A DNA stretch of 18,175 nt. It comes from a virus (taxonomy: Duplodnaviria; Heunggongvirae; Uroviricota; Caudoviricetes). The stretch lies in IMG/VR virus record IMGVR_UViG_2547132279_000005; one strand, 5' to 3'. Under the pieces are notes generated by a model. That model was not told the origin of the DNA, did not search any database, and saw only the letters and a program-made list of their open reading frames with translations. Position numbers and translations under genes: made by a program. This document shows positions 3,029 through 17,424 of the stretch, piece by piece; position 1 is the first letter of the stretch, and every line of letters starts with the position of its first letter.

Positions 3029-3936
3029 ATGCCCGCCGTTGACCTTTCCCAGTTACCGGAACCCGCCATCATCGCGGAGCCTGACTTTGAAGCAATTCTG
3101 GCTGACACAAAAGCCATGATGATTGCGTCCTATCCCGCCGAACAGCGTGAAGCCGTTTCCGCCGCACTGGAGCTGGAATCGGAACCCCTTAACGTTATCG
3201 CTCAAACCATGTCGTTTCGTGAAATGCTGTTACGCCAGCGGGTCAATGAGGGTGCACGCGCCTGCATGTTAAGCCACAGCGCCGGGACAAACCTGGACAA
3301 CCTCGCAGGCAATATGAACACAAAGCGCCTGGTTATCACTCCGGCAACGGATACCACCGACGCAGTGATGGAAAGTGACACCTCGCTGAGACTGCGGGCG
3401 CAACGGGCGTATGACGGTCTGAGTGTTGCTGGCCCGTCAGGTGCATACGAGTATTTTGCACGCAGCGCCAGCGGTCTGGTACGCGACGCGCGGGCCATCA
3501 GTCCGTCTCCGGCAAATGTGACGGTTTCCATCCTGTCCACTGACTGTCCACTGAAGGCGACGGCACAGCAACGGAGGCGTTGCTTAATACCGTTCGCGCC
3601 GTTCTGAATGCAGAGGATACCCGCCCGGTGGCCGACCGCCTGACCGTACAGAGTGCCAGAATCGTGACATGGCGGCTGAATGCAAAACTGTACTTTTACC
3701 CCGGCCCGGAATCCGAACCTATTCTGGCCGCGGCTGAATCGTCGTTCAGGAAGTGGCTGGCTGAGCAGGGGCTTATCGGTCAGGACGTGGCGTTGTCCGC
3801 CATTGCTGCCGCACTGCATGTGCACGGTGTGCAACGCGTGGAGATAATCGAACCCACACAGAATATGGCCATCAGCGACATACAGGCGGCGCGCTGTGAG
3901 TCGTTCACCATCAGCGAAGGTGGGCGCAATGAGTAA
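3029..3936 (+). pseudogene. J: Baseplate protein gpJ, disrupted by an 11-bp tandem duplication causing a frameshift
   Basis: The J homologue is split between ORF 3029..3607 and ORF 3580..3936. CTGTCCACTGA occurs twice in perfect tandem at 3533-3543 and 3544-3554. Deleting one copy restores a single 299-codon frame reading ...VTVSILSTEGDGTATEALLNTVRAVLNAEDTRPVADRLTVQ..., colinear with P2 gpJ (...VTISVLS...VRPVADRVTVQ...). Confidence 0.85.
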
Positions 3937-4459
3937 TTCACTGTTACCACCATCAGCCAGCAGTTTCATGCGTTGTGCCGAAGCTGTCGGAACGCGCATT
4001 ACAGACATCCCGGTAGACCTCAACACGCTGTGGTCGCCGGACACCTGCCCGGTGCACCTGCTGCCTTATCTCGCCTGGGCATTTTCCGTTGACCGTTGGG
4101 ATCGCAACTGGCCGGAAGAGGCAAAACGACAGGTGATTCGTGATGCATGGCTGATACACCGACACAAAGGGACCATCAGCGCACTGCGCAGGGCCATTGA
4201 GCCGCTGGGATACCTCATTCGCGTGTCTGAGTGGTGGGAGTTCGGCGGAGAACCGGGAACATTTACCGTTGAAGTCGGCACACTGGACAGTGGCGTGACG
4301 GAGGAAATGTATCTGGAAATGGAGCGGTTGATTGCTGATGCCCGTCCGGTCAGCCGCCACATGACAGGGCTGAATATCATTCAGGAAATTCCGGGGGATA
4401 TTTTTGCAGCGGCGGCAACTTATGACGGTGAAGTTATTACCATTTATCCGGACGATTAA
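3929..4459 (+). CDS. I: Baseplate protein gpI
   Basis: Starts at ATG 3929, overlapping the J stop. WSPDTCPVHLLPYLAWAFSVDRWD and KRQVIRDAW...HKGTI...EMERLIADA closely match P2 gpI (WNPDTCPANLLPWLAWAFSVDRWD...). Confidence 0.9.
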   Translation: MSNSLLPPSASSFMRCAEAVGTRITDIPVDLNTLWSPDTCPVHLLPYLAWAFSVDRWDRNWPEEAKRQVIRDAWLIHRHKGTISALRRAIEPLGYLIRVSEWWEFGGEPGTFTVEVGTLDSGVTEEMYLEMERLIADARPVSRHMTGLNIIQEIPGDIFAAAATYDGEVITIYPDD

Positions 4460-4461
4460 GC

Positions 4462-6756
4462 ATGAGTACCACAACACGAAAATTTAAAACCGTTATCACC
4501 GATACAGGTGCCAAAAAATTAGCTCAGGCAGCCGCGCCAGATGGTAAGCCTGTTCGCCTGACTCATATGGCCGTGGGCGACGGTGGCGGCACGTTGCCCA
4601 CACCAGACAGTAAGCAGACCCGTCTGGTGCATGAGGTGTGGCGACACACAGTTAATCGCGTCATCCTGGACGCAACACATCAGAACCGCATTATTGCGGA
4701 GCTGGTTATTCCTCCTGAAACGGGCGGATTCTGGATCCGGGAAATTGGTGTATTTGATGAGCACGGCGATTTAATCGCGGTGGGCAATACTGCCGAAAGT
4801 TACAAGCCAGCCGTTGCTGAAGGGTCCGGTCGTGCACAAACATTTCGCACCATTCTGACCGTATCCAGCACGGCCACCGTGGCGCTTACCGTGGATAACA
4901 CCATGGTGATGGCCACAGTGGATTACGTGGATGACAAACTGAAAGAGCATGAACAGTCACGACGTCACCCGGACGCCTCGCTGACCGCAAAAGGCTTTGT
5001 TCAACTCAGTAGCGCCACTAACAGCGTGTCTGAAACGCAGGCTGCAACGCCGAAAGCGGTTAAGGCCGCATATGACCTGGCTAACGGAAAATATACCGCT
5101 CAGGACGCCACGACGGCACGAAAAGGCCTTGTCCAGCTCAGTAGCGCCACCAACAGCACGTCTGAAACGCAGGCTGCAACGCCGAAAGCAGTAAAGGCCG
5201 CGTATGACCTTGCTAACGCAAAATATACCGCTCAGGACGCCACGACGGCACAAAAAGGGATAGTCCAGCTCAGTAGTGCCACCAACAGCACGTCTGAAAC
5301 ACTGGCCGCGACATCGAAAGCGGTTAAGGCGGTAATGGATGAAACGAACAAGAAAGCGCCCTTAAACAGTCCTGCGCTGACCGGAACGCCAACAACACCA
5401 ACTGCGCGACAGGGAACGAATAATACCCAAATCGCAAGCACGGCTTTCGTTATGGCTGCGATTGCCGCCCTTGTAGATTCGTCACCTGACGCACTGAATA
5501 CGCTGAACGAGTTAGCGGCGGCGCTGGGAAACGACCCGAATTTTGCGACCACCATGACTAACGCGCTTGCGGGTAAGCAACCGAAAGATGCCACCCTGAC
5601 GGCGCTGGCCGGGCTTGCTACTGCGGCAGACAAGTTTCCGTATTTTACGGGGAATGATGTCGCCAGCCTGGCAACCCTGACAAAAGTCGGGCGGGATATT
5701 CTTGCGAAATCGACCGTTGCTGCCGTTATCGAATACCTCGGTTTACAGGAAACGGTAAACAGGGCTGGTAACGCCGTGCAAAAAAATGGCGATACCTTGT
5801 CCGGTGGGCTTACTTTTGAAAACGACTCAATCCTTGCCTGGATTCGAAATACTGACTGGGCAAAGATTGGTTTTAAAAATGATGCCGATAGCGATACTGA
5901 TTCATACATGTGGTTTGAAACAGGCGACAACGGCAATGAATATTTCAAATGGAGAAGCAAACAAAGCACCACAACAAAAGACCTGATGAATCTTAAATGG
6001 GATGCTTTGTCTGTTCTTGTTAAAGCCCTTTTCAGCAGTGAAGTAAAAATATCGACAGTCAATGCACTGAGGATATTTAATTCATCTTTTGGTGCCATTT
6101 TTCGCCGTTCTGAAGAATGCCTGCATATCATCCCTACACGAGAGAATGAGGGGGAAAATGGCGATATAGGGCCGCTACGCCCCTTTACGCTTAATCTCAG
6201 AACTGGTCGCATAAATATGGGGCATGGTCTGGATGTTACAGGAGATATAACAACTAACGCATGGGTGTACGCAAACCGCCTTGCAATTAACAGCAGTACA
6301 GGCATGTGGATTCATATGCGTGACCAGAATGTTATTTTTGGACGTAATGCGGTATCCACTGATGGTGCTCAGGCTTTGCTCCGTCAGGACCATGCCGACC
6401 GCAAATTTATGATTGGCGGTCTGGGAAATAAGCAATTTGGCATCTACATGATTAATAACTCAAGGACAGCCAATGGCACCGATGGTCAGGCGTACATGGA
6501 CAATAACGGTAACTGGCTTTGCGGTGCGCAAATTATTCCCGGAAATTATGGCAATTTTGACTCACGCTATGTGAGAGATGTCCGACTTGGCACACGTGTT
6601 GTTCGATTGATGGCGCGTGGAGGGCGTTATGAAATAGCCGGACACGCACTTACCGGATTAAGGATTATTGGTGAAGTTGATGGCGATGATGAAGCTATCT
6701 TCAGGCCGATACAAAAATACATCAATGGCATATGGTATAACGTCGCACAGGTGTAA
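4462..6756 (+). CDS. H: Tail fibre protein gpH (constant N-terminal part fused to the currently expressed variable C-terminal segment)
   Basis: 764 aa. The N-terminus (MSTTTRKFKTVITDTGAKKLAQAA) and overall architecture are gpH-like, with 44-aa tandem repeats. The gix-like crossover site lies in frame at codons VIEYLGLQE (5725-5751). The C-terminus ends ...RPIQKYINGIWYN.., the same motif as the alternative cassette. Confidence 0.9.
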   Translation: MSTTTRKFKTVITDTGAKKLAQAAAPDGKPVRLTHMAVGDGGGTLPTPDSKQTRLVHEVWRHTVNRVILDATHQNRIIAELVIPPETGGFWIREIGVFDEHGDLIAVGNTAESYKPAVAEGSGRAQTFRTILTVSSTATVALTVDNTMVMATVDYVDDKLKEHEQSRRHPDASLTAKGFVQLSSATNSVSETQAATPKAVKAAYDLANGKYTAQDATTARKGLVQLSSATNSTSETQAATPKAVKAAYDLANAKYTAQDATTAQKGIVQLSSATNSTSETLAATSKAVKAVMDETNKKAPLNSPALTGTPTTPTARQGTNNTQIASTAFVMAAIAALVDSSPDALNTLNELAAALGNDPNFATTMTNALAGKQPKDATLTALAGLATAADKFPYFTGNDVASLATLTKVGRDILAKSTVAAVIEYLGLQETVNRAGNAVQKNGDTLSGGLTFENDSILAWIRNTDWAKIGFKNDADSDTDSYMWFETGDNGNEYFKWRSKQSTTTKDLMNLKWDALSVLVKALFSSEVKISTVNALRIFNSSFGAIFRRSEECLHIIPTRENEGENGDIGPLRPFTLNLRTGRINMGHGLDVTGDITTNAWVYANRLAINSSTGMWIHMRDQNVIFGRNAVSTDGAQALLRQDHADRKFMIGGLGNKQFGIYMINNSRTANGTDGQAYMDNNGNWLCGAQIIPGNYGNFDSRYVRDVRLGTRVVRLMARGGRYEIAGHALTGLRIIGEVDGDDEAIFRPIQKYINGIWYNVAQV
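4989..5340 (+). repeat. About three tandem copies of a 132-bp (44-aa) coding repeat inside H
   Basis: Units begin near 4989, 5121 and 5252 and encode KG(F/L/I)VQLSSATNS(V/T)SETQAATPKAVKAAYDLAN(G/A)KYTAQDATTA(R/Q); the third copy is diverged. Confidence 0.85.
5726..5751. promoter_or_regulatory. Left gix/hix-like invertase crossover site, inside H
   Basis: TTATCGAATACCTCGGTTTACAGGAA matches the reverse complement of the site at 8797-8822 at 24 of 26 positions, and has the two-half-site layout around a central dinucleotide seen in Gin/Hin/Cin sites. Confidence 0.85.
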
Positions 6757-6759
6757 ATT

Positions 6760-7287
6760 ATGCAGCATTTAAAAAATATTAAGTCTGGAAATCCAAAAAC
6801 AAAAGAACAATATCAGCTAACAAAGAATTTTGATGTTATCTGGTTATGGTCCGAAGACGGAAAAAACTGGTATGAGGAAGTGAAAAACTTTCAGCCAGAC
6901 ACAATAAAGATTGTTTACGATGCAAATAATATTATTGTCGCCATCACCAAAGATGCCTCCACGCTTAACCCTGAAGGTTATAGCGTCGTTGAGGTTCCTG
7001 ATATTACAGCTAATCGTCGTGCTGATGATTCCGGTAAGTGGATATTTAAGGACGGAGCTGTGGTTAAACGGATTTATACGGCAGACGAGCAACAACAACA
7101 GGCCGAATCACAAAAGGCCGCGTTACTTTCCGAAGCAGAAAACGTTATTCAGCCACTGGAACGCGCTGTCAGGCTGAATATGGCGACGGATGAGGAACGC
7201 GCACGACTGGAGTCATGGGAACGCTATAGTGTTCTGGTCAGCCGTGTGGATACGGCAAATCCTGAATGGCCACAAAAGCCTGAATAA
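6760..7287 (+). CDS. G: Tail fibre assembly chaperone (P2 gpG / Mu U / Tfa family), paired with the current fibre C-terminus
   Basis: 175 aa, immediately downstream of H. The N-terminus [24 protein letters not shown] is paralogous to the minus-strand gene at 7316..7849. Confidence 0.85.
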
Positions 7288-7292
7288 AAATT

Positions 7293-7312
7293 AAGGCCCG
7301 ATAGCGGGCCTT
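7293..7312. terminator. Bidirectional hairpin terminator between the convergent tfa genes
   Basis: AAGGCCCG-ATAG-CGGGCCTT stem-loop, flanked by an A-run upstream and a T-rich tract downstream, between the stops of the two convergent chaperone genes. Confidence 0.6.
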
Positions 7313-7315
7313 GTT

Positions 7316-7849
7316 TCATTCTGGTTGTTCTGGAAACGTTACTGGCAGGCTGTAGGTGTCTGTGGATTCGACCTTCTGCGCATAGAGCATCCACTCGGTT
7401 AATTTTTGTTTATTCTCGTCGGAAATGATACCCAGCCGTAGCTGTGAGTCCCATAGCTGGGTTTTATCCCTGACAAGTTGCAACAGGCTTTGCTTTTCAT
7501 TCTCTGCCTGCTGCCTCTGTTCCTCCTCGGTATAAGTTCGCTTTATCACTACGCCATCTTTGAACATCCATTTACCCGAAATATCAGCCCGGCGATTTGC
7601 TGTAATATCAGGTAATTCAACGACGCTTGCGCCTTCTGGATTAATTGCTGAAACATCCTTTTCAATACAAATAATAACGCCGTTACGGTCATAGACCATT
7701 TTCAACGTATCAGGCTGAAAGTTCTTTTGTTCCTCATACCAGTTTTTTCCATCATCTGAATAAAGCCATTTGATGTTAAATTGTTTCGTTAGCTGGTATT
7801 GCTCTTTTGTTTTAGGGTTGCCAGCAGTAATGTTTTTTAAGTGCATCAT
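7316..7849 (-). CDS. Alternative tail fibre assembly chaperone (Tfa'/U'-like)
   Basis: 177 aa. N-terminus [24 protein letters not shown] and central [10 protein letters not shown] are paralogous to the plus-strand tfa. Lies immediately downstream of the alternative fibre segment. Confidence 0.85.
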   Translation of the reverse strand: MMHLKNITAGNPKTKEQYQLTKQFNIKWLYSDDGKNWYEEQKNFQPDTLKMVYDRNGVIICIEKDVSAINPEGASVVELPDITANRRADISGKWMFKDGVVIKRTYTEEEQRQQAENEKQSLLQLVRDKTQLWDSQLRLGIISDENKQKLTEWMLYAQKVESTDTYSLPVTFPEQPE

Positions 7850-7851
7850 AA

Positions 7852-8796
7852 TTAAATACTCCCCGCGTTATACCACCTTCCATTAATGCAATACTGAATT
7901 GGCCTTGCCTGAGTTGTATCAATTAATTCATCACGGTTTCCGTTAACTGAACCCGTAACGACATAACCTGACCTGTCAGACCAGCCGGGACCATTCCATG
8001 TCTGAACAGATGACAGACCGCCCAGGCGAATACCTGTAATAAACCTTGAGTTACATTCTGCCTGCGTATATGCACCAACATCCCCCGCAGAGGGTTTGCG
8101 GGTTGTGGTGTAAAACTCTGACCAGTTAGCTTCAAAGCCATAACCATCACGCGCTGAACGATAAAAGATACCGCCGTTTTTATAATTCACGCGGAACTGT
8201 ACAGCAGGGCAACTCCCCGCATTCATATTAAAGTGGAGGATTAATGTCGATGCGCCACTGATATCTGCATCATAAACGCCGCTATTCCAGTTCCAGCCAA
8301 CAGCTTTATCATTTGCAACCCTGCTTCCTGTTTGCCCTAAAGCAAATGCAGGCTGCTGGTTTTTCGTGTTGTAGTCTCGTCGCCAGCCAGGAGCATAAGC
8401 ATCACCATGATTAATATAGGTGAATTGAGCGTTAGTAATTCCGCCACCGCTGGATGTACTCGGCGTAGTAACGCGTATGGTCATTGCGCCGCGAGTGCCA
8501 ATAACTTCCACCACAGCACCTGCAAGACAAATATTTCCGCAACCTGTATCTGTAATGACCTTATTGTTTGCATAAGCCCATGAGCCTTTGCACATCCAGT
8601 AAGGATGGTTAAATGCCCCCTGACTCTCCAGCCACGAAATGAATTGTGCGGTTGTCCAGGTCTGACTATCGCCACCAATATTCAGCCATGCGCTATATGC
8701 GCGGCAGGCACCAATATTTTTGGTGAAGGTATCTTTTCCTGGAATATCTGCGCCGTTCTGTTTTTTCTGTAATGCACCAGAAGCCTGATTTACCGT
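7852..8796 (-). CDS. Promoterless alternative tail-fibre C-terminal segment (Hv'), expressed only after inversion fuses it to the constant part of H
   Basis: The minus-strand frame is open from the right crossover site (8797-8822) to the stop at 7852. Reading across the site gives ...QETVNQASGALQKKQNGADIP...MCKGSWAYANNKV..., in frame with H codons ...VIEYLGLQE. It ends ...RPIQYCINGRWYN.., like the current C-terminus. Confidence 0.8.
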   Translation of the reverse strand, partial: TVNQASGALQKKQNGADIPGKDTFTKNIGACRAYSAWLNIGGDSQTWTTAQFISWLESQGAFNHPYWMCKGSWAYANNKVITDTGCGNICLAGAVVEVIGTRGAMTIRVTTPSTSSGGGITNAQFTYINHGDAYAPGWRRDYNTKNQQPAFALGQTGSRVANDKAVGWNWNSGVYDADISGASTLILHFNMNAGSCPAVQFRVNYKNGGIFYRSARDGYGFEANWSEFYTTTRKPSAGDVGAYTQAECNSRFITGIRLGGLSSVQTWNGPGWSDRSGYVVTGSVNGNRDELIDTTQARPIQYCINGRWYNAGSI

Positions 8797-8822
8797 TTCC
8801 TGTAAACCGAGGTTTTAGATAA
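8797..8822. promoter_or_regulatory. Right gix/hix-like invertase crossover site
   Basis: TTCCTGTAAACCGAGGTTTTAGATAA closely matches the remembered Mu/P1 gix-cix sequence (TTCCTGTAAACCGAGGTTTTGGATAA). It lies about 55 bp upstream of the invertase start, as in Mu. Confidence 0.85.
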
Positions 8823-8876
8823 TGGCCGTTTCTGGCCTGCATGGCATGATTTGCGCTTTTGGACGGGAGATTCAGT

Positions 8877-9464
8877 GTGCTGATTGGCTATGTAAGGGTA
8901 TCAACAAATGACCAGAATACAGACCTGCAACGAAACGCTCTTGTTTGTGCAGGATGTGAACAGATATTTGAAGATAAATTAAGCGGGACAAAGACAGACC
9001 GACCGGGATTAAAACGCGCTTTAAAGCGCCTTCAAAAAGGTGACACGCTGGTTGTCTGGAAACTGGATCGCCTCGGGCGAAGCATGAAACATCTGATTTC
9101 TCTCGTCGGGGAACTACGGGAGCGAGGGATTAATTTTCGCAGTCTGACCGACAGCATAGATACATCTTCTCCAATGGGGCGTTTTTTCTTCCACGTGATG
9201 GGGGCCCTGGCTGAAATGGAACGTGAATTAATTGTTGAACGTACACTGGCCGGACTGGCGGCAGCGCGCGCACGGGGGCGCACAGGCGGACGTCGACCGA
9301 AGCTGACAAAAGAACAGCATGAGCAAATAGCAAGGCTGATTAAAAACGGTCACGACAGAAAACAACTGGCAATAATTTACGGCATTGGTATATCGACGAT
9401 TTATCGTTACCACCCCGCAGGAGAACCAAGCGGAACAATTGAGAAGAGTCAGGAAACAAAATAA
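8877..9464 (+). CDS. Site-specific DNA invertase, serine recombinase of the Hin/Gin/Cin/Pin family
   Basis: LIGYVRVSTNDQNTDLQRNAL...GDTLVVWKLDRLGRSMKHL...MGRFFFHVMGALAEMERELIVERTLAGLAAARARGRTGGRRPKLT is near-identical in pattern to Hin/Gin, including the catalytic serine in VRVST. GTG 8877 is preferred as the start; the ORF track begins at TTG 8859. Confidence 0.9.
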   Translation: MLIGYVRVSTNDQNTDLQRNALVCAGCEQIFEDKLSGTKTDRPGLKRALKRLQKGDTLVVWKLDRLGRSMKHLISLVGELRERGINFRSLTDSIDTSSPMGRFFFHVMGALAEMERELIVERTLAGLAAARARGRTGGRRPKLTKEQHEQIARLIKNGHDRKQLAIIYGIGISTIYRYHPAGEPSGTIEKSQETK

Positions 9465-9494
9465 CCGCTAATCTGACCATTAGCGGTTTTTGTG
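9464..9494. terminator. Bidirectional rho-independent terminator between the invertase (+) and U (-)
   Basis: ACCGCTAAT-CTGACC-ATTAGCGGT stem-loop followed by TTTTGTG on the plus strand and by a T-rich run on the minus strand, between two convergent stop codons. Confidence 0.75.
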
Positions 9495-9499
9495 TTAAA

Positions 9500-9994
9500 T
9501 CAGAACATCCCTTTAACTGAACTGGCCGCGCTGTTAAGAGATGATGTCACCTTATCTTTGAAGCCGGACAGCATATCGCTGAATGATGAGGATTGCAGGC
9601 GCTCCCGCAAATCCTCATCACAGCGTTCAAGTGTCAGTGAAAATTCTATCTTTTTCGCCTTACCGTAGCGATCAAACTCGGAACGGGTCGTATTCGTTCC
9701 GGTCAGGACATACATGCCGTAAATCTGCCCGACACCATCAATCAGAGGCCAGGGGCGTCCTGTATATGCCTGCGTGGTCAGCAGCGAAAGCGACACTTCG
9801 CCACCTGTAATTTCAGGATAAAGCACGCCAGAAAGCACGATGCGATCATCACCTGCACCGATATACTGCCAGCTTGCTGAGCGGTTTACGCGCTCATTTT
9901 TCACATGCCGCCAGCTTTTGTTTTGCTGTAACTGCTGATGCGGCAATGTGCGCAGCTCAAAAACAAACATGCCGTAGATCATCATCATGGCCAT
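9500..9994 (-). CDS. U: Tail protein gpU
   Basis: 164 aa. MAMMMIYGMFVFELRTLPHQQLQQNKSWRH...LSGVLYPEITGG matches P2 gpU (MMMVLGLFVFMLRTVPYQELQYQRSWRH...LSGVLLPEVTGG). The start overlaps the T stop. Confidence 0.9.
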   Translation of the reverse strand: MAMMMIYGMFVFELRTLPHQQLQQNKSWRHVKNERVNRSASWQYIGAGDDRIVLSGVLYPEITGGEVSLSLLTTQAYTGRPWPLIDGVGQIYGMYVLTGTNTTRSEFDRYGKAKKIEFSLTLERCDEDLRERLQSSSFSDMLSGFKDKVTSSLNSAASSVKGMF

Positions 9995-10000
9995 GACTCC

Positions 10001-12844
10001 TCAATCTTTATCGTAAAAACTGCCACGTCCGGCACGGGCGCGCTGTTCCATTTCTGCCCTGACCATTTCACCGACCAGTTTCGCCAGTTCGCGGGGATTC
10101 TGTGTAACAACGTTATGCAGATGAACATGAATTTCACCGCCAAATCCGGAGGCAACAGGCTCCCGGTTACGGGAATTTGCAGGAACTGATGCCACTGGCG
10201 ATCGTATAGCCTCTGCCACCGGGCGGGAGCTGGCCGCAACAACAGGGACCAGCGCCGGAGGCAGCGGAGCCGGAACCACGGGTGTGATAGTAATTGCGGG
10301 GGCAGGCTTACTGACCTGCGCAATCTTCCGCTCCTGCCACTCCCCACGAACAGCAAGTGCGCGGGGCAGGTTCTTAAAGACAATATCACCGGGGCCAATG
10401 CGTTTTTTCGTCTCATCAACCAGCTTACCTGTGTTATCAGCAATTTTGCTGAGTCTGCGTAGCGTACCGGTATTGCTGTCTGTGAGTGGTTTGTTGTCTT
10501 TGGGTTTATCACCTCCGGTGCCATTGCCATTTTCCACAGGCTTCGGCGGATTGATTTTCGCCAGGTCCCCCTGAAGCAAGGCAACCTTGTCCTGAAGAAT
10601 GGCCGCACGCTGTGCGTCTTCGATTTTCTTGCGCGCCCTTTCAGCTTCATCCGGAAGGACGCCAAGTTTTTCAAGTATCCACGCCAGCGTATCCAGTAGC
10701 ATTTTTGCAGGTGTCAGAACAAGCTGTAACGCACCGCCAAGAACGTTACCGAATATCTCGCCAGCACTGGTACATTTATCCAGCGTTTCCTTACTGGACT
10801 CCATCGGTGACAGCAGCGATTTAAACCAGTTAAACACCTGGCTGATCCCGCTTCCGATTGCGTCAAAAACAGGGCCAAACCGTTCAAAGGTTTCGCGCAA
10901 CGGAGCCAGCCGTTCCATAATCCCACTGAACACCCCTGCATAAAACGCCTTGATGGGTTCCCAGTATTTCCAGATGAGAACCGCCGCAGCCACAAACGCA
11001 GCAGCAATCAATCCGACCGGACTGAACAGCGCCCCGATAGCGCCTCCCAGTAACGAAATGGAACCCGTCACCATTCCCCATAATGCAGGCAGAACCCTGA
11101 CAACATTCAATGATCCGGTCAGGAGGGAAAAACCAAGACGCAGTTTTGCCAGTGGGCCAGCAAGCACACCAATAGCCAGCGACAACGAGCCTATGGTTGC
11201 AGTCATTGCCAGCAGAGCACCGCCTGCAACCAGTAGCTGGCGCGTCAGTGCCGGATGGGCCTGCGCCAGCGCCGTCACCTTCGATACCACCCGCGTGAGC
11301 CACTGCGTGACAGAACGCTGCGGACCGTCAATCAGATCTGCAATGCGGATGCGCACCCCTTCCCATGCACTGCCGAGTGATTTCAGATCGCCGTCAAGGT
11401 TGTTGGCCATAACCTTTGCTGTGCGTTCAGCCTCACCGCGCGCGCCTTCAAGTTCTTTTCTCAGTTTGGGTAAGGAGCCGTCACCTGCCGCATCAACGAG
11501 GGCCATAAATGATGTGAAAGCCTCTTCTCCGGCAATATCCTTAAAGAACGATACCCGGTCAACTTCCCCGTATTTGCGGGTGGCTTTATAAAGGTCAGCC
11601 AGCAGATCTTCCATCGGGCGCATTTTGCCGTTCGCGTCAGAGACGGACACGCCCAGCTCTTTCAGCGCCTCTGCTGCTGCCTTTGGCGGTGATGCCAGAC
11701 GAGCCAGGCTGGCACGCATTGCCGTCCCGGCATCACTCCCTCTGATACCCATATTCGCCAGCACGCCAGCCATCGCTGCAGCCTGCTCCAGCGATATTCC
11801 CAGCTTACCCGCCACCGGACCGGCATATTTCATGGTTTCGCCCAGTGCGCGAAGGTCAGTGTTGGTACGGGTAAACGCTGCAGTGAGTGTGTCACCGACC
11901 CGGTCCATCTGGTCAGCAGAAAGGCCGAACTGCGTCAGGATATTTGAGCCAATATCCGCCGTCTCGCCGAGATCCATACCGCCAGCCGTTGCCATGCTCA
12001 ACACGCCGGGAAGCGCAGCCTGAATGGCCTGCGGTGTGAAGCCAGCCATTGCAAGAAATGCCTGCCCACTGGCGGCATCGCCTGCGGTGAACTGCGTTTC
12101 AGAGCCAAGTTTTAACGCCTGCTCACGCAGCGCCTTAAACTGCGGGCTGTTCTGGTCGATTCGCGTCAGCGCCTGAACGCGGGACATCTCTTTCCCGAAC
12201 CCGATTGCGGGCTGCAAAAAACGCCCGGCAGCATAGCCGCCCGCCGCTGCCGCACCAATTGCCAGTACACCACCTGTTTTCAGTTTTCCCGCTGTTTCCT
12301 GCGCACGCGAATACCGCTCACGCGCCCGCGTTACACGCGCAAGCGACTGCCGTTCGCGTTCAAGCTGGTTGTTGTACTGTTCGGTGCGCCTGATGGCCTG
12401 TTGAATGGTGTTATCGCTGCCTGTCAGGGAAATGCCGTGGCGTTTCAGCTCTCCGCCAAGCTCCCGCATTTTCTGAATTTCCCGTATGCGCGATTCATTC
12501 AGGCGTTCAAGCCGGGTGCTTAACTGCTGCATCAGCTTTTGTTGCTTTTCGCTGAGCACTGTACCCGTGCGTTGTAACTGATTAAGGGCGTTAAGCTGGC
12601 GTCGTGCTTTCACGATACCCGCATCCGCTTTACTGACAGCGTCGCGGGCGCGCTCAAATGAACGCGCCTGACGCTCGAGATTTTTGATCGCCCCCTGCGT
12701 TCGCTGGATGGAGTCACCAAACTGCCCCATCAGGCGGCGGGCGTTTTCGGCAGGCCGGGTCAGCCTGTCAACGGCGCTGAAAGCGACCCGGATATCAAGA
12801 GTCTTCATTGTCTGCATTCCCGCTGCGAAGTGCCGCCCGCTCAC
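10001..12844 (-). CDS. T: Tail tape measure protein gpT
   Basis: 947 aa, coiled-coil-rich N-terminus with central hydrophobic and glycine-rich segments, positioned between E/E' and U. The true start may be an internal Met (MQTMK or MKTLD), since the E' frame overlaps the 5' end. Confidence 0.85.
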   Translation of the reverse strand: MSGRHFAAGMQTMKTLDIRVAFSAVDRLTRPAENARRLMGQFGDSIQRTQGAIKNLERQARSFERARDAVSKADAGIVKARRQLNALNQLQRTGTVLSEKQQKLMQQLSTRLERLNESRIREIQKMRELGGELKRHGISLTGSDNTIQQAIRRTEQYNNQLERERQSLARVTRARERYSRAQETAGKLKTGGVLAIGAAAAGGYAAGRFLQPAIGFGKEMSRVQALTRIDQNSPQFKALREQALKLGSETQFTAGDAASGQAFLAMAGFTPQAIQAALPGVLSMATAGGMDLGETADIGSNILTQFGLSADQMDRVGDTLTAAFTRTNTDLRALGETMKYAGPVAGKLGISLEQAAAMAGVLANMGIRGSDAGTAMRASLARLASPPKAAAEALKELGVSVSDANGKMRPMEDLLADLYKATRKYGEVDRVSFFKDIAGEEAFTSFMALVDAAGDGSLPKLRKELEGARGEAERTAKVMANNLDGDLKSLGSAWEGVRIRIADLIDGPQRSVTQWLTRVVSKVTALAQAHPALTRQLLVAGGALLAMTATIGSLSLAIGVLAGPLAKLRLGFSLLTGSLNVVRVLPALWGMVTGSISLLGGAIGALFSPVGLIAAAFVAAAVLIWKYWEPIKAFYAGVFSGIMERLAPLRETFERFGPVFDAIGSGISQVFNWFKSLLSPMESSKETLDKCTSAGEIFGNVLGGALQLVLTPAKMLLDTLAWILEKLGVLPDEAERARKKIEDAQRAAILQDKVALLQGDLAKINPPKPVENGNGTGGDKPKDNKPLTDSNTGTLRRLSKIADNTGKLVDETKKRIGPGDIVFKNLPRALAVRGEWQERKIAQVSKPAPAITITPVVPAPLPPALVPVVAASSRPVAEAIRSPVASVPANSRNREPVASGFGGEIHVHLHNVVTQNPRELAKLVGEMVRAEMEQRARAGRGSFYDKD

Positions 12845-13031
12845 GCCAGCTAACCACTTCGCCGGGCGTCATCATGAAGATTTCGGCGGGCGACCAGTTA
12901 AAAATAACGGCAATATCTGCCACAAAGTCTTCTATGTGCTCAAAGCACACAACCGTGATCAGGCTTCCGTCGCCTGTTCGTTCTTCCCGCCAGAGTCCGC
13001 ACCGCTCAAAAAATTTACGGCAACCACACAT
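12795..13031 (-). CDS. E' frame: C-terminal extension of the tail assembly chaperone, reached by -1 programmed frameshift from E
   Basis: This -1 frame overlaps the 3' end of E and runs into the T start region. The slippery heptamer TTTTTTG is on the coding strand at 13007-13013. Same arrangement as P2 E/E'. Confidence 0.75.
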   Translation of the reverse strand: MCGCRKFFERCGLWREERTGDGSLITVVCFEHIEDFVADIAVIFNWSPAEIFMMTPGEVVSWRERAALRSGNADNEDS

Positions 13032-13324
13032 AACTGAATAAAGTCACGGGATGCCATTTTTTTGATCGTCACTTCATCCAGTCGCGGTGATGTCACGCGT
13101 GACAGCAGCGTAAACATGGATTCCGCTTTCAGACTCAGCACATCAGACAGCGACAAATCTCGCAGAGATCCAGCCTGCTCAATAGCCCCGGTGATCTCCA
13201 CATACGTGATTTTTTCGCCGCTTCGCTCAATTGGTTGGGTAAGTTTTACGCCACGCTCACTGGTTTCTTTCACAGTGTCAGTAACTACCGTGTTTTCGGT
13301 ATCGATGTTTTTCGTCTCTTTCAT
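12959..13324 (-). CDS. E: Tail assembly chaperone gpE
   Basis: 121 aa, acidic, between FII and T. The slippery site lies near the 3' end (...AVNFLSGADSGGKNEQATEA). Confidence 0.8.
   Translation of the reverse strand: MKETKNIDTENTVVTDTVKETSERGVKLTQPIERSGEKITYVEITGAIEQAGSLRDLSLSDVLSLKAESMFTLLSRVTSPRLDEVTIKKMASRDFIQLCVVAVNFLSGADSGGKNEQATEA
13007..13013 (-). promoter_or_regulatory. -1 programmed ribosomal frameshift slippery site (T TTT TTG) for E to E+E'
   Basis: The coding strand reads AAA TTT TTT GAG; the E frame continues N-F-L-S and the -1 frame continues F-F-E-R into the E' ORF. Confidence 0.75.
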
Positions 13325-13378
13325 CAGGAAACTCCTTTCAGTCAGAGGCGACGCACTGCGCCGCCTGCATATTACTTA

Positions 13379-13891
13379 TCAGCCAAGCCCAAGCGCGGAA
13401 CGGATGCGATCGGGCACAATGTCCTTGCCGTCCTTCCGGTAAATGAAGTTCAGCAGGTCAATCTCCCACAACGGGCGATCGTTAACACTCAGCTTGTAGT
13501 AGGTGTTTTTAATGGCATAAGTGTGTGATGTGGCTTCGCCCTGTTTGGCTTCCCCCATATCAATTTCCGTCACACGTCCGCGCATTTCGACTTCATACAG
13601 GTCGCTTTCTGCATCGGTGTAGTATTCACCTGCAAAACGCAGCAGTGTGCCGTCAATCGTGCCGCCATACTTAAGGAACAGCTCACGAACTGCGCCCCCC
13701 ATGACAAAGCTCGCATCAAGCGCGGAGTCGTCCAGGCCGAGATCAATACTTACCGCCCCCATCATGCCACCACCCCGGTAGCTGTCGGTTTTGCGCGTCA
13801 GCTTAGGCAGAGTGACGGACGTCACCTTACCCACTTCGTTTTCACCATCCACAAACAGCGTAAAAAAGCGAAGATGTTTTGGCACAGCCAT
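13379..13891 (-). CDS. FII: Tail tube protein gpFII
   Basis: 170 aa. SVTLPKLTRKTDSYRGGGMMGAVSIDLGLDD matches P2 FII (SVTLPKLTRKLENYRGAGMNGSAPVDLGLDD). Confidence 0.9.
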   Translation of the reverse strand: MAVPKHLRFFTLFVDGENEVGKVTSVTLPKLTRKTDSYRGGGMMGAVSIDLGLDDSALDASFVMGGAVRELFLKYGGTIDGTLLRFAGEYYTDAESDLYEVEMRGRVTEIDMGEAKQGEATSHTYAIKNTYYKLSVNDRPLWEIDLLNFIYRKDGKDIVPDRIRSALGLG

Positions 13892-15075
13892 CAGGCACCT
13901 CCCAGCACCGCAAATGCGGGTTCAAAGTATTCATCAGTAAACGTCTGGTAAAGCTCCATGTCTTCCAGTGGCGGAACGGGCGTATATTTGTAGCGAATAC
14001 GCACACGTCCCTGACGTAAATCCGTGGTGCTGTTATCCACCACGTCATACCAGCACTCCGCGCCAATCAGTTTCCCGGCAGTAACCAGTGAATCCAGTTT
14101 TGCCCTGATGGCACTGATAACATCCTTCACGTTCGCAGGCGTCAGTGGACTGTCGATGGTTTCAAACTGCGCTTCCGCAATTGAATCAGCCAGCACCTGT
14201 GCGGTTCGGGTATACACCTCAAAGATGTAGGCGTTCGTTTCCGGTGTGCGGTTGCCCCAGAAGCGGAACCCGTTGCGACGAATAATGGTCGTGATTTCTT
14301 TGTTGTTGAGGCTGTTGGCATCGCTGTCTTCGGCCTGCAACGACCAGAACACATGCCTCGACATCCCCAGCACATTTTTAACCGGAACGTTGGACAGTGA
14401 TTTGTGCCATCCCTGCTCATGGTCAATGTACGCACGAAGGCCGCACGCATAGGCAGGCGCGGGGAACGTTTCGTTTTTGCCACTTTTCGGGTTGTAGGCG
14501 ATGAAGTCCGGCCATAAGAGCATCACCTCACGTTCGTTGAATTTCTGGCGGTAGGTAATCGCCTCAGCCATCGTGTTACAGCCGTGACATGAGGCATACA
14601 CAAACGCGCGCAGTTTACCTGCAATCACGCACAGGGATTTTGTTACAGCCTCCGTGTCCAGCTCCGGCGCGGCCAGAATACGCGGACGGTATCCGATGCT
14701 TTCATCCTGCTCTGCAACAAGCAGCGCATACATCCCCGTATAGCTGCCGTCATCCTCAGAACCACCGATAACCAGTTGATCCTGCGTCTTTCCGTCTTCT
14801 TCTTTGTGTTCAGCCACGCGAACGACGATCACCTTTGTGCTCACCTGGTCTGCGATGGCCTTAAGCGCACGATAAAGCGTCCCCGTTGTCCCGCATTTTC
14901 CCAGCACGTCATTGACGCGGGTCAGCAGTGTGGGCTTGTTCAGCGGGAACAGCTTCGCGTCCGCATCATCCGCCGTTGCCACGATACCGATAACGCTGGA
15001 ATCAACATCGTTAATCGCTGTTACCAGGTCGGTATTTTCCGTAACACGGGCACCATGAAAACGAGTTTCACTCAT
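13891..15075 (-). CDS. FI: Contractile tail sheath protein gpFI
   Basis: 394 aa with FPLNKP, KLRAF, GWHKSLSNV, IRRNGFRFWGNRT, YTRTAQV and YTPVPPLE, all matching the P2 FI pattern. Confidence 0.9.
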   Translation of the reverse strand: MSETRFHGARVTENTDLVTAINDVDSSVIGIVATADDADAKLFPLNKPTLLTRVNDVLGKCGTTGTLYRALKAIADQVSTKVIVVRVAEHKEEDGKTQDQLVIGGSEDDGSYTGMYALLVAEQDESIGYRPRILAAPELDTEAVTKSLCVIAGKLRAFVYASCHGCNTMAEAITYRQKFNEREVMLLWPDFIAYNPKSGKNETFPAPAYACGLRAYIDHEQGWHKSLSNVPVKNVLGMSRHVFWSLQAEDSDANSLNNKEITTIIRRNGFRFWGNRTPETNAYIFEVYTRTAQVLADSIAEAQFETIDSPLTPANVKDVISAIRAKLDSLVTAGKLIGAECWYDVVDNSTTDLRQGRVRIRYKYTPVPPLEDMELYQTFTDEYFEPAFAVLGGA

Positions 15076-15232
15076 AGCTTCAGCCCCTTGTATCCGTTAA
15101 ATGATTCGGCAACAATCATCACCCACCACGCGCGTAATCTCACCCCTGCGCCGTTCTCCCGTCACGGCGACAACAAAAAGCAGTAACCCCCTCCGCACGC
15201 ACATGCGACCATGCCGCACAGGGAGGGAACAG

Positions 15233-16342
15233 ATGACCGATACCACCATGCAATTGCTCAGTCAGGGCACAGACCCCGTGAAAATGCCGGATTTTGATAT
15301 TCTCGCGGAGGGTAAAACGCTGTCAGGCGTGGCCGAGCGCCTGATGAGCCTGTCACTGACCGACAACCGGGGATTTGAGGCGGACCAGCTCACCATCACG
15401 CTGGATGATGCGGATGGTCAGTTGCAGCTACCGCCACGGGGCGCGCGCCTGACGGTTCTCATTGGCTGGAAAGGAGAACCGCTGACAGAAAAAGGCACTT
15501 ACATTGTTGATGAAATCGCTCACGAAGGACCGCCGGACAGGCTGACTGTTTCAGCCAGAAGCGCAGATTTTCGGGATGAATTTAACGTTAAACGTGAGGT
15601 GTCCTGGCATGATGTGACCATTGAGCGTGTGGTATCCGCCATCGCTCATCGGTATGGTCTGAAACCGCAAATCAGCGAAATGCTGATGGATATCGAAATC
15701 GACCACGCCGACCAGACTGAAGAAAGCGACATGTCCTTCCTTACGCGCATGGCGGAAATGCTGGGCGCAATCACCACGGTAAAAAGCGGTAATCTGTTAT
15801 TCATCATGCCCGGCGGTGGCGTGAACGCACAGGGCCAGCCGTTGCCATCGTTCGCCATCACACGCAGCAGCGGCGATCGCCATCAGTTCCGCATTGCTGA
15901 CCGCGAGGCGTATACGGGGGTACGCGCTTACTGGCTTGATCTTAATTACGGGAAAAAGAAAAAAGTCAGCGTGAAACGCCGCAAACCGCCAAAACCCAAA
16001 AAGGAGAAAAGCAGCAGCCGTGAAGGTGATTATATGGAAGGCGCGGAAGGCAATGTGTTTGTGTTACGCAAGACTTATCAGAACGAGCAGGCAGCAAGAC
16101 GCGCAGCGGCGGCAAAGTGGCAGCAGCTACAACGCGGAGCCGCATCATTCTCCATCACGCTGGCGCGTGGACGCGCAGAACTCTATCCCGAAATGCATGG
16201 CACGGTGAAAGGCTTCAAAAGTGACATCGACAATCAGGACTGGATTATTGCAAAAGCTGAGCACACCATTGATAACAGCGGCTTTACCACACAGCTTGAG
16301 CTTGAGGCAAAAATCCCGGAATGGATAGCGGAAACAGAGTGA
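15233..16342 (+). CDS. D: Tail protein gpD (late control gene D / baseplate hub)
   Basis: LMSLSLTDNRGFEADQLTITLDDADGQLQLPPRGARLTVLIGWKG, RSADFR, SDMSFLTRMAE and a lysine-rich linker followed by EGDYMEGAEGNVF are colinear with P2 gpD. Start chosen at ATG 15233, preceded by GGGAGGG; the ORF track extends upstream to 15101. Confidence 0.85.
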   Translation: MTDTTMQLLSQGTDPVKMPDFDILAEGKTLSGVAERLMSLSLTDNRGFEADQLTITLDDADGQLQLPPRGARLTVLIGWKGEPLTEKGTYIVDEIAHEGPPDRLTVSARSADFRDEFNVKREVSWHDVTIERVVSAIAHRYGLKPQISEMLMDIEIDHADQTEESDMSFLTRMAEMLGAITTVKSGNLLFIMPGGGVNAQGQPLPSFAITRSSGDRHQFRIADREAYTGVRAYWLDLNYGKKKKVSVKRRKPPKPKKEKSSSREGDYMEGAEGNVFVLRKTYQNEQAARRAAAAKWQQLQRGAASFSITLARGRAELYPEMHGTVKGFKSDIDNQDWIIAKAEHTIDNSGFTTQLELEAKIPEWIAETE

Positions 16343-16384
16343 AGAACTTAGAATAGCGGCAGCACCACGTTAAGGGAGGTCGCT

Positions 16385-16645
16385 ATGTTCCGTTGTCCGC
16401 TTTGTGGCGCATCTGCCCGTATCCGCACCAGTCGTCCGGAAAATGATTCAAACACCGTGCGGCAAAAGTATTACCAGTGTAACAACCTGGAATGCGGCGT
16501 ATGCTTCTCAACACTGGAAGCCTTCCATAAATTCACATCGAAACACGCCTCCGGCGTTCACTCATCAGAAGGTATTCCGTGGCATGAGCTGCCAGCTTCA
16601 CACAGGGGAAACAATCAGATGAGTTTGCCTTTACCTCAGAATTAA
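16385..16645 (+). CDS. ogr: Ogr/Delta-family zinc-finger late transcription activator
   Basis: MFRCPLCGASARIRTSRPENDSNTVRQKYYQCNNLEC has the same CxxC...CxxxxC layout and ARTSR motif as P2 Ogr (MFHCPLCQHAAHARTSR...YHQCQNVNC). Preceded by an AGGGAGG Shine-Dalgarno sequence. Confidence 0.85.
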   Translation: MFRCPLCGASARIRTSRPENDSNTVRQKYYQCNNLECGVCFSTLEAFHKFTSKHASGVHSSEGIPWHELPASHRGNNQMSLPLPQN

Positions 16646-16718
16646 CAGGCAGAATTGCCGGAGTAACAAAAAAGCGATAGATTACGCGCGGGTGCCTTTC
16701 GGCTGATGGTCGGAGGGA

Positions 16719-16916
16719 ATGCCCGAAGGCCAGATGTGGAAAGGCCCCGGAAAACATCTCTGTTTAACCGAGGCCCTAACCGTCTACCTAGCAAGTGATA
16801 GGTTAGCGCCTCCCCGAAAAAGGAGCAAGCGCTATGTCGCAAAAATCGCTTACAGCCATCACGTTCTGTGTGACGGCAATCCTCATCATCTGGATGCTGC
16901 ACGGCTCGCTGTGTGA
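16719..16916 (+). CDS. mok-like overlapping reading frame upstream of and overlapping the hok-like gene
   Basis: A 65-codon ORF begins 115 nt upstream of the hok-like start and overlaps it in another frame, as mok does in hok/sok loci. There is no independent sequence support. Confidence 0.35.
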   Translation: MPEGQMWKGPGKHLCLTEALTVYLASDRLAPPRKRSKRYVAKIAYSHHVLCDGNPHHLDAARLAV

Positions 16917-16974
16917 AATACGGATGAACTTCTGGGGAGCGGAGTTTGCGGCGTTCTTACAGTGTAAACAGTAA
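16834..16974 (+). CDS. Hok/Gef-family type I toxin (small membrane protein)
   Basis: The 46-aa product MSQKSLTAITFCVTAILIIWMLHGSLCEIRMNFWGAEFAAFLQCKQ has an N-terminal transmembrane segment and the family motifs SLCE(I/L)R and AAFL.CK (compare Hok RKSLCEIR; HokA ...WMIRDSLCEL...ELAAFLACK). SD is AAGGAG. A 9-bp-stem hairpin at 16984-17007 lies just downstream. Confidence 0.75.
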   Translation: MSQKSLTAITFCVTAILIIWMLHGSLCEIRMNFWGAEFAAFLQCKQ

Positions 16975-17064
16975 GGAAACCGCGACGGGGGAAGAGATTC
17001 CCCCGTCAATCGGTTGCCAGGGTAAGGTCGATAAGGCACCCTATCTCACAGACATGAACAACAA

Positions 17065-17098
17065 ACCCGCAGCGTAAAAACTGCGGGTTTTCTTTTTG
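17065..17098 (+). terminator. Rho-independent terminator downstream of the hok-like gene
   Basis: ACCCGCAG-CGTAAAAA-CTGCGGGT stem-loop followed by TTTCTTTTTG. Confidence 0.75.
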
Positions 17099-17144
17099 CT
17101 ACCCTCACAAATGAGGGCACCATACATAAGCAATAGGCATAACA

Positions 17145-17182
17145 GATCGATGCAATAAATCCGATCGATAAAAACGATCGAT
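17145..17182. promoter_or_regulatory. Cluster of three GATCGAT motifs (Dam GATC sites) in the com-like promoter region
   Basis: GATC at 17145-17148, 17163-17166 and 17176-17179, each within GATCGAT, spaced 18 and 13 bp apart, 45-80 bp upstream of the com-like start. Confidence 0.6.
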
Positions 17183-17226
17183 TTGTTATCATATCGGCAG
17201 CAGTAACCACACAAGAGGTGCCGCAA

Positions 17227-17424
17227 ATGACGCAAAATGTACGATGCAAAAATTGCAACAAACTACTTGCCCGCGCCTCATTTCACTACATTGAAATAAA
17301 ATGTCCGCGCTGCAAAACACTTAACCAGATAACGAGAGCCATCGAGCACCCCACACACATGAGGAGTTATGACCGTGGGGATCGCAATCCAGCACCAACC
17401 AGCACATACACCGGAACACACTAA
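17227..17424 (+). CDS. com: Com-like zinc-finger translational regulator (Mu Com homologue)
   Basis: MTQNVRCKNCNKLLARASFHYIEIKCPRCK matches Mu Com (MKSIRCKNCNKLLFKADSFDHIEIRCPRCK), with four Cys in a CxxC...CxxC layout. SD AAGAGG lies 9 nt upstream of ATG 17227. The 3' end overlaps the methyltransferase start. Confidence 0.85.
   Translation: MTQNVRCKNCNKLLARASFHYIEIKCPRCKTLNQITRAIEHPTHMRSYDRGDRNPAPTSTYTGTH
17349..17380 (+). promoter_or_regulatory. RNA hairpin enclosing the methyltransferase Shine-Dalgarno sequence and start codons (candidate Com target)
   Basis: CCCCAC (17349-17354) and GTGGGG (17375-17380) are exactly complementary. They flank GAGGAG (17361-17366) and ATG 17369, and the in-frame GTG 17375 is part of the 3' arm. 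Confidence 0.45.

Follow-up and report, generated by a model that had tools for sequence, protein, structure and literature searches.

A probable Gin-type inversion switch joining the Mu G segment to a P2-type tail fiber gene in a P88-like prophage

The 18,175-nucleotide stretch of Caudoviricetes DNA analyzed here (IMG/VR record IMGVR_UViG_2547132279_000005; hereafter the window) very probably carries a Gin-type inversion switch in which the G segment of phage Mu, together with the 5' end of gin, is joined to the P2-type tail fiber gene, H, of a P88-like (P2-family) E. coli prophage. The segment is the Mu G segment by descent, and its fusion to H falls precisely at gixL, an arrangement shared with phage P88. 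An original prediction had assigned the locus to the Mu G, P1 C, and e14 P type of host-range switch, and all elements of such a switch that are visible in sequence are present, while the predicted inversion product is found in nature. That reading is supported by the recombination sites, the reading frames, the invertase, the occurrence of the inverted junction (junction B) in other genomes, and the presence of both orientations among relatives. The switch type is already known, and its P2-like form can be found, with annotation, in the deposited record of phage P88.

Recombination sites, invertase, and enhancer

The elements that would carry out and regulate the inversion are as follows.

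5726-5751, no strand assigned: gixL-like recombination site on the left, located within H and in its reading frame
8797-8822, no strand assigned: right recombination site (gixR-like), 67 nt 5' of the invertase start
8877-9464, plus strand: serine DNA invertase of 195 aa, initiated at GTG (Pfam Resolvase, 1.3e-50; HTH_7, 1.6e-13)
8895-8962, no strand assigned: putative sis-like recombinational enhancer, Fis-dependent, within the 5'-terminal part of the invertase gene
9463-9488, no strand assigned: hairpin that lies between the invertase and convergent gpU genes and has T-runs on either strand

The predicted inverted pair of 26-bp sites was recovered, with the left site (TTATCGAATACCTCGGTTTACAGGAA) and the reverse complement of the right site (TTATCTAAAACCTCGGTTTACAGGAA) matching at 24 of 26 positions. 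Their proposed likeness to gix also held, with two mismatches (left) and one (right) to the Mu reference sequence (TTCCTGTAAACCGAGGTTTTGGATAA). Both differences between the sites lie in the outer half-sites, the left outer half-site carrying two changes relative to Mu gix, and the inner half-sites are identical. The crossover dinucleotides are TC at 5738-5739 and GA at 8809-8810, and the sites are therefore compatible in inverted orientation. As had been described, the left site is read in frame within H, where residues 422 to 430 are VIEYLGLQE. Scanning for gix with up to 3 mismatches returned just these two sites, against 0.00 expected from 200 shuffles. A third gix-like site, which would make the locus a shufflon like one described in enteropathogenic E. 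coli (EPEC), was absent even at up to 8 mismatches. Weaker inverted complementarity surrounds the sites, extending over 65 nt at 77% identity with a core of ∼25 identical nt.

The invertase is 86% identical to Gin in the BLAST alignment and 69% identical to Cin, with E values of ∼1e-100 to the Gin structures 4M6F and 3UJ3 and 2e-12 to the Hin DNA-binding domain (1HCR). Identity is concentrated in the catalytic domain, where 118 of 120 residues match Gin and Ser9, Met114, and the YVRVSTNDQ motif are kept; the HTH domain (aa 121 to 195) is ∼60% identical by hand count from the alignment. In Gin, S9 is the nucleophile, and the M114V substitution frees the enzyme from its Fis requirement (PMC3575834). 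A frameshifted invertase is ruled out, the open reading frame (ORF) being 195 uninterrupted codons and full length relative to Gin. For this protein, an NCBIfam search gave only sub-threshold matches. A small serine recombinase with a Ser9 catalytic domain and a C-terminal HTH, acting on paired inverted 26-bp sites with identical central dinucleotides, is characteristic of the Din family, and both are found here; a Fis-dependent enhancer in cis, which in the Gin, Cin, and Hin systems occupies the start of the invertase gene, is also likely to be present, by homology.

The position of this putative enhancer was taken from the P7 GenBank record, in which nt 19 to 86 of cin are annotated as enhancer, and 8877-8962 is identical to nt 1 to 86 of Mu gin. 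Fis-binding sites had been anticipated in the first 150 bp of the invertase gene, and two candidate 15-bp cores (G-N13-C) occur there, at 8898-8912 and 8947-8961, although the enhancer as such is assigned by homology. The candidate cores are 49 bp apart from start to start by hand count and have the same sequence as in Mu. The spacing quoted for the Hin enhancer is 48 bp. A crude sigma-70 scan of 8500-9600 gave no consensus promoter upstream of the invertase, a result that its crudeness makes uninformative rather than negative; gin expression is weak. The hairpin at 9463-9488 is likely a bidirectional terminator.

Two fiber tips and their chaperones

Two fiber C-termini and two chaperones lie between the sites, downstream of a constant part of H.

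4462-5736, plus strand: H constant part, codons 1 to 425 (Pfam Phage_tail_fib and Phage_fiber_2)
5738-8810, no strand assigned: invertible segment, 3073 bp, G-segment homolog, in an orientation that corresponds to Mu G(+)
5737-6756, plus strand: Sv, the variable H C-terminus expressed now, 339 codons plus stop
6760-7287, plus strand: U-like tail fiber assembly chaperone of 175 aa, in the same orientation as Sv (Pfam Caudo_TAP, 1.4e-37)
7316-7849, minus strand: U'-like chaperone, 177 aa, silent in the present orientation (Pfam Caudo_TAP, 2.3e-35)
7852-8811, minus strand: Sv', the alternative fiber C-terminus, 319 codons plus stop, by translation

The constant part of H, which lies outside the invertible segment, comprises a P2-type collar domain and three 44-aa fiber repeats and is collinear among relatives of either orientation. 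The two cassettes are close to Mu S-U and S'-U', for which structures have been solved (5YVQ and 8JU3). Sv has a divergent tip and shares 68.5% identity with its Mu equivalent (E = 1.9e-145 to 5YVQ), and the accompanying U-like chaperone is 94.9% identical to Mu U (E = 8.7e-109 to 5YVQ_B). Sv' is 95.9% identical to its Mu counterpart (E = 1.6e-213 to 8JU3), the U'-like chaperone is 96.6% identical to Mu U', and identity between Sv and Sv' is just 25%. The two Caudo_TAP proteins thus agree with the expectation of a separate chaperone for each tip; in the NCBIfam search the fiber and chaperone proteins had no family-level match. The proposed common ending of the two tips, RPIQ.YING.WYN, needs correction, since one cassette reads RPIQKYINGIWYN and the other RPIQYCINGRWYN, and the shared motif is therefore RPIQ..ING.WYN.

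The minus-strand frame leading out of the right site is open, as predicted, but its length is 320 codons rather than 315, counted from the TAA at 8815-8817 to the stop at 7852-7854, or 319 from the crossover codon. Its predicted lack of a start codon is true of the first 73 codons and fails beyond them, where an internal ATG at 8595 opens a 247-aa ORF (7852-8595). This ORF is labeled "tail fiber protein" in the P88 GenBank record, and its equivalent in relatives carries the RefSeq label "missing N-terminus"; it is an artefact of annotation, arising from a cassette that lacks a promoter. The view that Sv' can be expressed only after inversion, as a fusion to H, agrees with an in silico fusion that is in frame. 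The locus thus has the architecture of Mu G and P1 C: a site inside the fiber gene and two promoterless tips in opposite orientations, each followed by a chaperone.

In the proposed mechanism, dimers of the Gin-type invertase would bind both gix-like sites, assisted by host Fis, which presumably occupies the enhancer within the 5'-terminal part of the enzyme's own gene. Both sites would be cut at the central TC/GA, and the strands rotated and rejoined, to invert the 3073 bp between them. The H promoter, its start codon, and codons 1 to 425 would stay fixed and serve either tip, with H read into Sv and then the U-like chaperone in the present orientation to give a 764-aa fiber, and into Sv' and then the U'-like chaperone after inversion to give a 744-aa fiber; H is in frame in both cases. 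Different receptor-binding tips would in turn give two host ranges.

Comparison with known systems

The closest described phage is P88 (KP063541; Xuanwuvirus, Peduoviridae), which shares 98% nucleotide identity over 4400-9600, the same gene order, and the same annotated gene set. Both of its sites are identical to those of the window, as are 761 of 764 residues of H and 192 of 195 of the invertase. The window copy differs from P88 by an 11-bp duplication that frameshifts the baseplate gene J and by an IS100 insertion beside an S-like gene, adjoining the late genes. In the paper on P88 host range (PMC5285337) no word starts with "inver," and inversion in P88 is therefore not described there; the host-range regions that it maps at aa 716 to 746 correspond to 6607-6699, inside Sv. 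Because Sv and Sv' are so dissimilar, because Sv' matches its Mu counterpart at 96%, and because the P88 determinants fall inside Sv, we infer that the two orientations correspond to two host ranges. Flipping in the source strain and the receptors of the two tips are likewise inferred.

Across the G segment and the 5' end of gin, the window is ∼93% identical in nucleotide sequence to Mu and collinear with the Mu record. In megablast this homology starts exactly at 5726, the first base of gixL, and ends at 9256, nt 380 of the invertase gene. In Mu, too, gin starts with GTG and lies 67 nt from the site, and the G segment/Gin system of D108 resembles the window as that of Mu does. Unlike Mu, the window has a P2-type H (425 codons) rather than Sc as the constant part, its Sv tip and the C-terminal domain of its invertase have diverged, and the invertase is followed by a convergent tail-gene block in place of com-mom. 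The C segment/Cin system of P1 and P7 has the same architecture and matches most of the segment at 90 to 94% nucleotide identity, and the P7 enhancer is annotated at the position homologous to that in the window, but the P7 cin gene is located across the segment from the position seen here, and cixL overlaps its 3' end.

Goldberg et al. (2014; PMC4272514) demonstrated inversion in the P2-like prophages of EPEC E2348/69 by sequencing and PCR, with experimental evidence of coexisting fiber orientations in clonal cultures. There and in e14 (Pin), a prophage-borne Din-family invertase flips fiber C-termini, as we propose for the window. One EPEC locus has three repeats and four variants, whereas the window locus has two sites only.

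Orientations among relatives and alternative explanations

The window itself contains a single orientation (junction A), which is present in 355 complete E. coli genomes, and the junction produced by in silico inversion (B) is present in 124, with matches of up to 98.7% identity. For the window as a whole, the best match among complete RefSeq E. coli genomes was 96.5% identical and covered 91% of its length. When its segment is inverted in silico, the window aligns to prophage E94 as a single 7072-nt match. The segment is inverted in E94, 2020N21-110-24, L008, L009, L011, L012, and L015, and the invertases of flipped relatives are 98.5 to 99% identical to that of the window. Eight loci encode the identical invertase protein, three in orientation A and five in B, and one genome carries two such copies in opposite orientations. 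The clinical isolate 2020N21-110 and its derivative 2020N21-110-24 have flanks that are 100% and 99.95% identical, and their sole difference is inversion of the segment.

Such differences could in principle have arisen if RecA recombined the two inverted homologous stretches. When relatives are compared, the breakpoints cannot be located more precisely than the identical core (5722-5763 and 8784-8826), and sequence alone therefore cannot separate this route from site-specific exchange. However, ∼25 bp of identity seems too short for frequent RecA recombination, the locus has an invertase of its own, gix sites of canonical sequence whose central dinucleotides match, and an enhancer that is conserved, and inversion recurs, both across the 355 and 124 genomes and within the clonal pair. 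We consider a RecA origin extremely improbable. A more plausible, though still very unlikely, rival is that the switch, although its sequence is intact, is frozen, the prophage decaying and the invertase unexpressed or inactive on slightly altered sites, such that orientation is fixed. The IS100 insertion and the J duplication do indicate decay, no promoter consensus was seen 5' of the invertase in the crude scan, and the window shows one orientation. Against this, the locus retains an intact invertase ORF, an intact pair of sites, and an intact enhancer, and relatives with identical sites and invertases 98.5 to 100% identical in protein sequence occur both ways. In addition, Pin of the defective prophage e14 still flips its segment at ∼1:1 in MG1655 derivatives (PMC4272514).

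A Gin-type switch thus remains our preferred reading, and a further process may be considered alongside it. Whole fiber-tip cassettes could move between unrelated co-resident Mu, P1/P7, and P2-like phages not by homologous recombination alone but also through invertase-catalyzed intermolecular gix/cix exchange, a suggestion that we regard as unlikely. It was prompted by the limits of Mu homology (5726 and 9256) and by the public assembly of L012, which has the same invertase and right flank and a P1-type R-S left flank. If true, the switch would also be a portable site for module swapping.

Significance

The locus adds little that is new, being a classical phage host-range switch whose P2-like form is common among E. 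coli genomes. Given the IS100 insertion and the frameshifted J gene, virion production by the window prophage is doubtful. In the source strain, where the prophage appears crippled, the switch may flip without a phage phenotype, and the population may be mixed in DNA orientation yet without two kinds of phage. Assemblies of such prophages record one of two coexisting states, and host-range studies of P88-like phages (e.g., PMC5285337) should consider the second fiber tip.

Architecture of the invertible fiber module

The tail fiber gene H contains a 26-bp gix-like site in frame, and a second site lies in inverted orientation ahead of a serine invertase gene, as the original prediction had it. 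The features of the module are listed below, with the alternative fiber C termini named Sv and Sv' and their chaperones U and U', as in Mu.

Features of the fiber switch
4462-6756: H, 764 aa, P2-type collar domain and fiber repeats
5726-5751: left site, TTATCGAATACCTCGGTTTACAGGAA, in frame in H (aa 422-430)
6760-7287: Caudo_TAP chaperone 3' of H, 175 aa
7316-7849, strand opposite to H: second chaperone, 177 aa
8797-8822: right site, reverse complement TTATCTAAAACCTCGGTTTACAGGAA
8877-9464: serine invertase gene, 195 aa, Resolvase and HTH_7 domains
8895-8962: predicted inversion enhancer, from identity to gin and the P7 cin annotation; two candidate Fis cores, 8898-8912 and 8947-8961
9463-9488: hairpin with T-runs on both strands, between the invertase gene and the convergent gpU gene

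The sites agree at 24 of 26 positions and differ from Mu gix by two mismatches (left) and one (right), so that their placement, mutual match, and likeness to gix were all borne out. They are the only gix-like sites in the window (both strands, ≤3 mismatches; 0.00 expected from 200 shuffles), and because no further site appears in it even with ≤8 mismatches, the switch is a simple, two-site system and not a shufflon. Both left/right mismatches fall in the outer, stationary half-sites, the inner half-sites being identical, and the central dinucleotides (TC at 5738-5739, GA at 8809-8810) are compatible when inverted.

On the strand opposite to H, the frame reaching the right site is open for 320 codons rather than the 315 first counted, and the claim that it has no start codon holds only for its first 73 codons, which are free of ATG, GTG, and TTG. 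The earliest start is an internal ATG at 8595, giving a 247-aa ORF that corresponds to the "tail fiber protein" annotated in the P2-like Escherichia phage P88 and whose counterpart RefSeq labels as lacking an N terminus. In silico inversion of 5738-8810 joins H codons 1 to 425 in frame to this cassette, yielding a 744-aa protein. Each fiber tip is paired with its own chaperone, as predicted, and both cassettes share a C-terminal motif, although its form is RPIQ..ING.WYN and not the RPIQ.YING.WYN originally read.

The constant part of H includes three 132-nt tandem repeats (4971-5366) encoding 44-aa Phage_fiber_2 units; repeat number may vary among relatives, given fiber lengths of 656 to 804 aa. 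Central Sv (6028-6549) gave no megablast alignment to three related loci in the same orientation (L010, L013, and L014) that are elsewhere 97 to 98% identical; it also differs from Mu Sv, overlaps region HR1 of P88 (aa 576-695), and looks like a local hypervariable stretch.

Invertase and enhancer

Comparison with Gin gave 86% identity over the BLAST alignment and 118/120 identical residues in the catalytic domain, with the Ser9 nucleophile and Met114 both kept; the substitution M114V frees Gin from Fis dependence (PMC3575834). The C-terminal DNA-binding domain is more diverged, and nucleotide homology to Mu stops at 9256. The gene starts, exactly like Mu gin, at a GTG preceded by GGAG, and the 67 nt from the right site to this start equal the distance in Mu. 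Because 8877-8962 matches gin nt 1 to 86 with no difference and the P7 record annotates the enhancer at cin nt 19 to 86, we place the enhancer at 8895-8962. The Fis sites to be sought at the 5' end of the gene are represented by two candidate cores, which Fis would presumably bind.

Relationship to P88, Mu, P1, and P7

The closest named phage is P88 (Xuanwuvirus), with 98% identity across a 5.2-kb region, a matching gene set (fiber, two assembly proteins, second "fiber," and DNA invertase), and an H protein identical at 761 of 764 residues. The Mu G segment and the 5' part of gin align at ∼93% identity exactly from 5726 to 9256, oriented as the Mu G(+) record is, and the P1 and P7 C segments show 90 to 94% identity. 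Protein identities to Mu are 94.9% for U, 96.6% for U', and 95.9% for Sv', but 68.5% for Sv, whose tip is divergent; for both tips and the chaperone there are matches to solved structures from Mu (5YVQ, S-U; 8JU3, S-S'). These nucleotide and protein identities, together with the structure matches, indicate that the module descends from the Mu G module, with a P2-type H gene joined at gixL.

Downstream, the tail block U-T-E-FII-FI (9500-16645) is encoded by the minus strand and converges with the invertase gene; D and ogr are on the plus strand. This block is presumably inverted relative to the P2 gene order, and no gix-like sites flank it. The right end (about 16400-18175) carries an N6/N4 DNA methyltransferase gene (17369-18175). 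At 15887-17599 of a related locus, L007, the methyltransferase gene is preceded by genes for Hok/Gef, a TM2-domain protein, and a Com-family regulator, the last overlapping the methylase start, an arrangement reminiscent of Mu com-mom but with a methyltransferase instead.

Segment orientation in related prophages

Flipping was judged from public genomes. A left-junction query of 600 nt matched 355 complete Escherichia coli genomes at full length in the window form, and 124 in the predicted inverted form (identity up to 98.7%). The window aligns with the prophage of strain E94 as three pieces, the middle one reversed (breakpoints 5722-5763 and 8784-8826); once inverted, it aligns with that prophage as a single match of 7,072 nt. 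Eight loci share the exact invertase protein and both sites, three in the window orientation and five inverted. One E. coli chromosome (CP035879.1) carries two prophage copies (L009 and L010), both with the window's exact invertase and with opposite segment orientations. The 3.1-kb segment is inverted in one relative to the other in 2020N21-110, a clinical isolate, and 2020N21-110-24, derived from it; their flanks are 100% (4,791 nt) and 99.95% (4,201 nt) identical, and the invertase of both is identical to the window's at 193/195 residues. Coexisting orientations were shown experimentally for EPEC P2-like prophages and e14 (PMC4272514).

With all components intact and switching frequent in relatives that carry identical ones, the switch is unlikely to be a frozen relic, and inversion by RecA across the short inverted homology is also an improbable source of the two forms. 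The predicted process is standard Din-family inversion. The observation is confirmed, and its interpretation as a Mu G-type host-range switch is supported; the system was already known.

One related locus, L012 (UASF01000009.1, 583450-596037), shares with the window its invertase, its right site, and its P2-like right flank, but on the left it holds a P1-type R gene and a 1,267-aa fiber and lacks a left site of the window type. Either recombination via the homologous invertible segments, yielding a cointegrate or recombinant, or chimeric assembly could account for it.

Host range and state of the prophage

Invertase dimers at both sites and Fis at the enhancer would form an invertasome on supercoiled DNA, in which Ser9 would cut the central dinucleotides, subunits rotate 180 degrees, and strands be religated (PMC3575834, PMC3798978). 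Either Sv and U or Sv' and U' would then follow the H promoter and N terminus, which stay fixed. Host-range determinants of P88 were mapped experimentally to aa 716 to 746 and single sites nearby (PMC5285337), a paper containing no word starting with "inver"; these residues correspond to 6607-6699, within the invertible Sv.

This copy carries two lesions. Positions 1-1457 belong to an IS21-family element, IS100/IS100kyp, of which the 3' part is present (IstA C terminus, 7-612; IstB, 609-1391); plasmids of E. coli isolates from diarrheal stool carry copies that match it at 100% identity. The element ends 7 nt ahead of an S-like virion morphogenesis gene, so that the R-like tail gene found in related prophages is interrupted here; the related loci L013 and L014 instead have this IS between gpU and the tape-measure gene. 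Baseplate gene J (3029-3936) contains an 11-bp tandem duplication, CTGTCCACTGA, at 3533-3543, not present in P88, E94, or U90, which frameshifts it into two ORFs (3029-3607 and 3580-3936). Given the insertion and the frameshift, the prophage is probably defective and may be incapable of making virions. By analogy with Pin in the defective e14, its switch could still flip.
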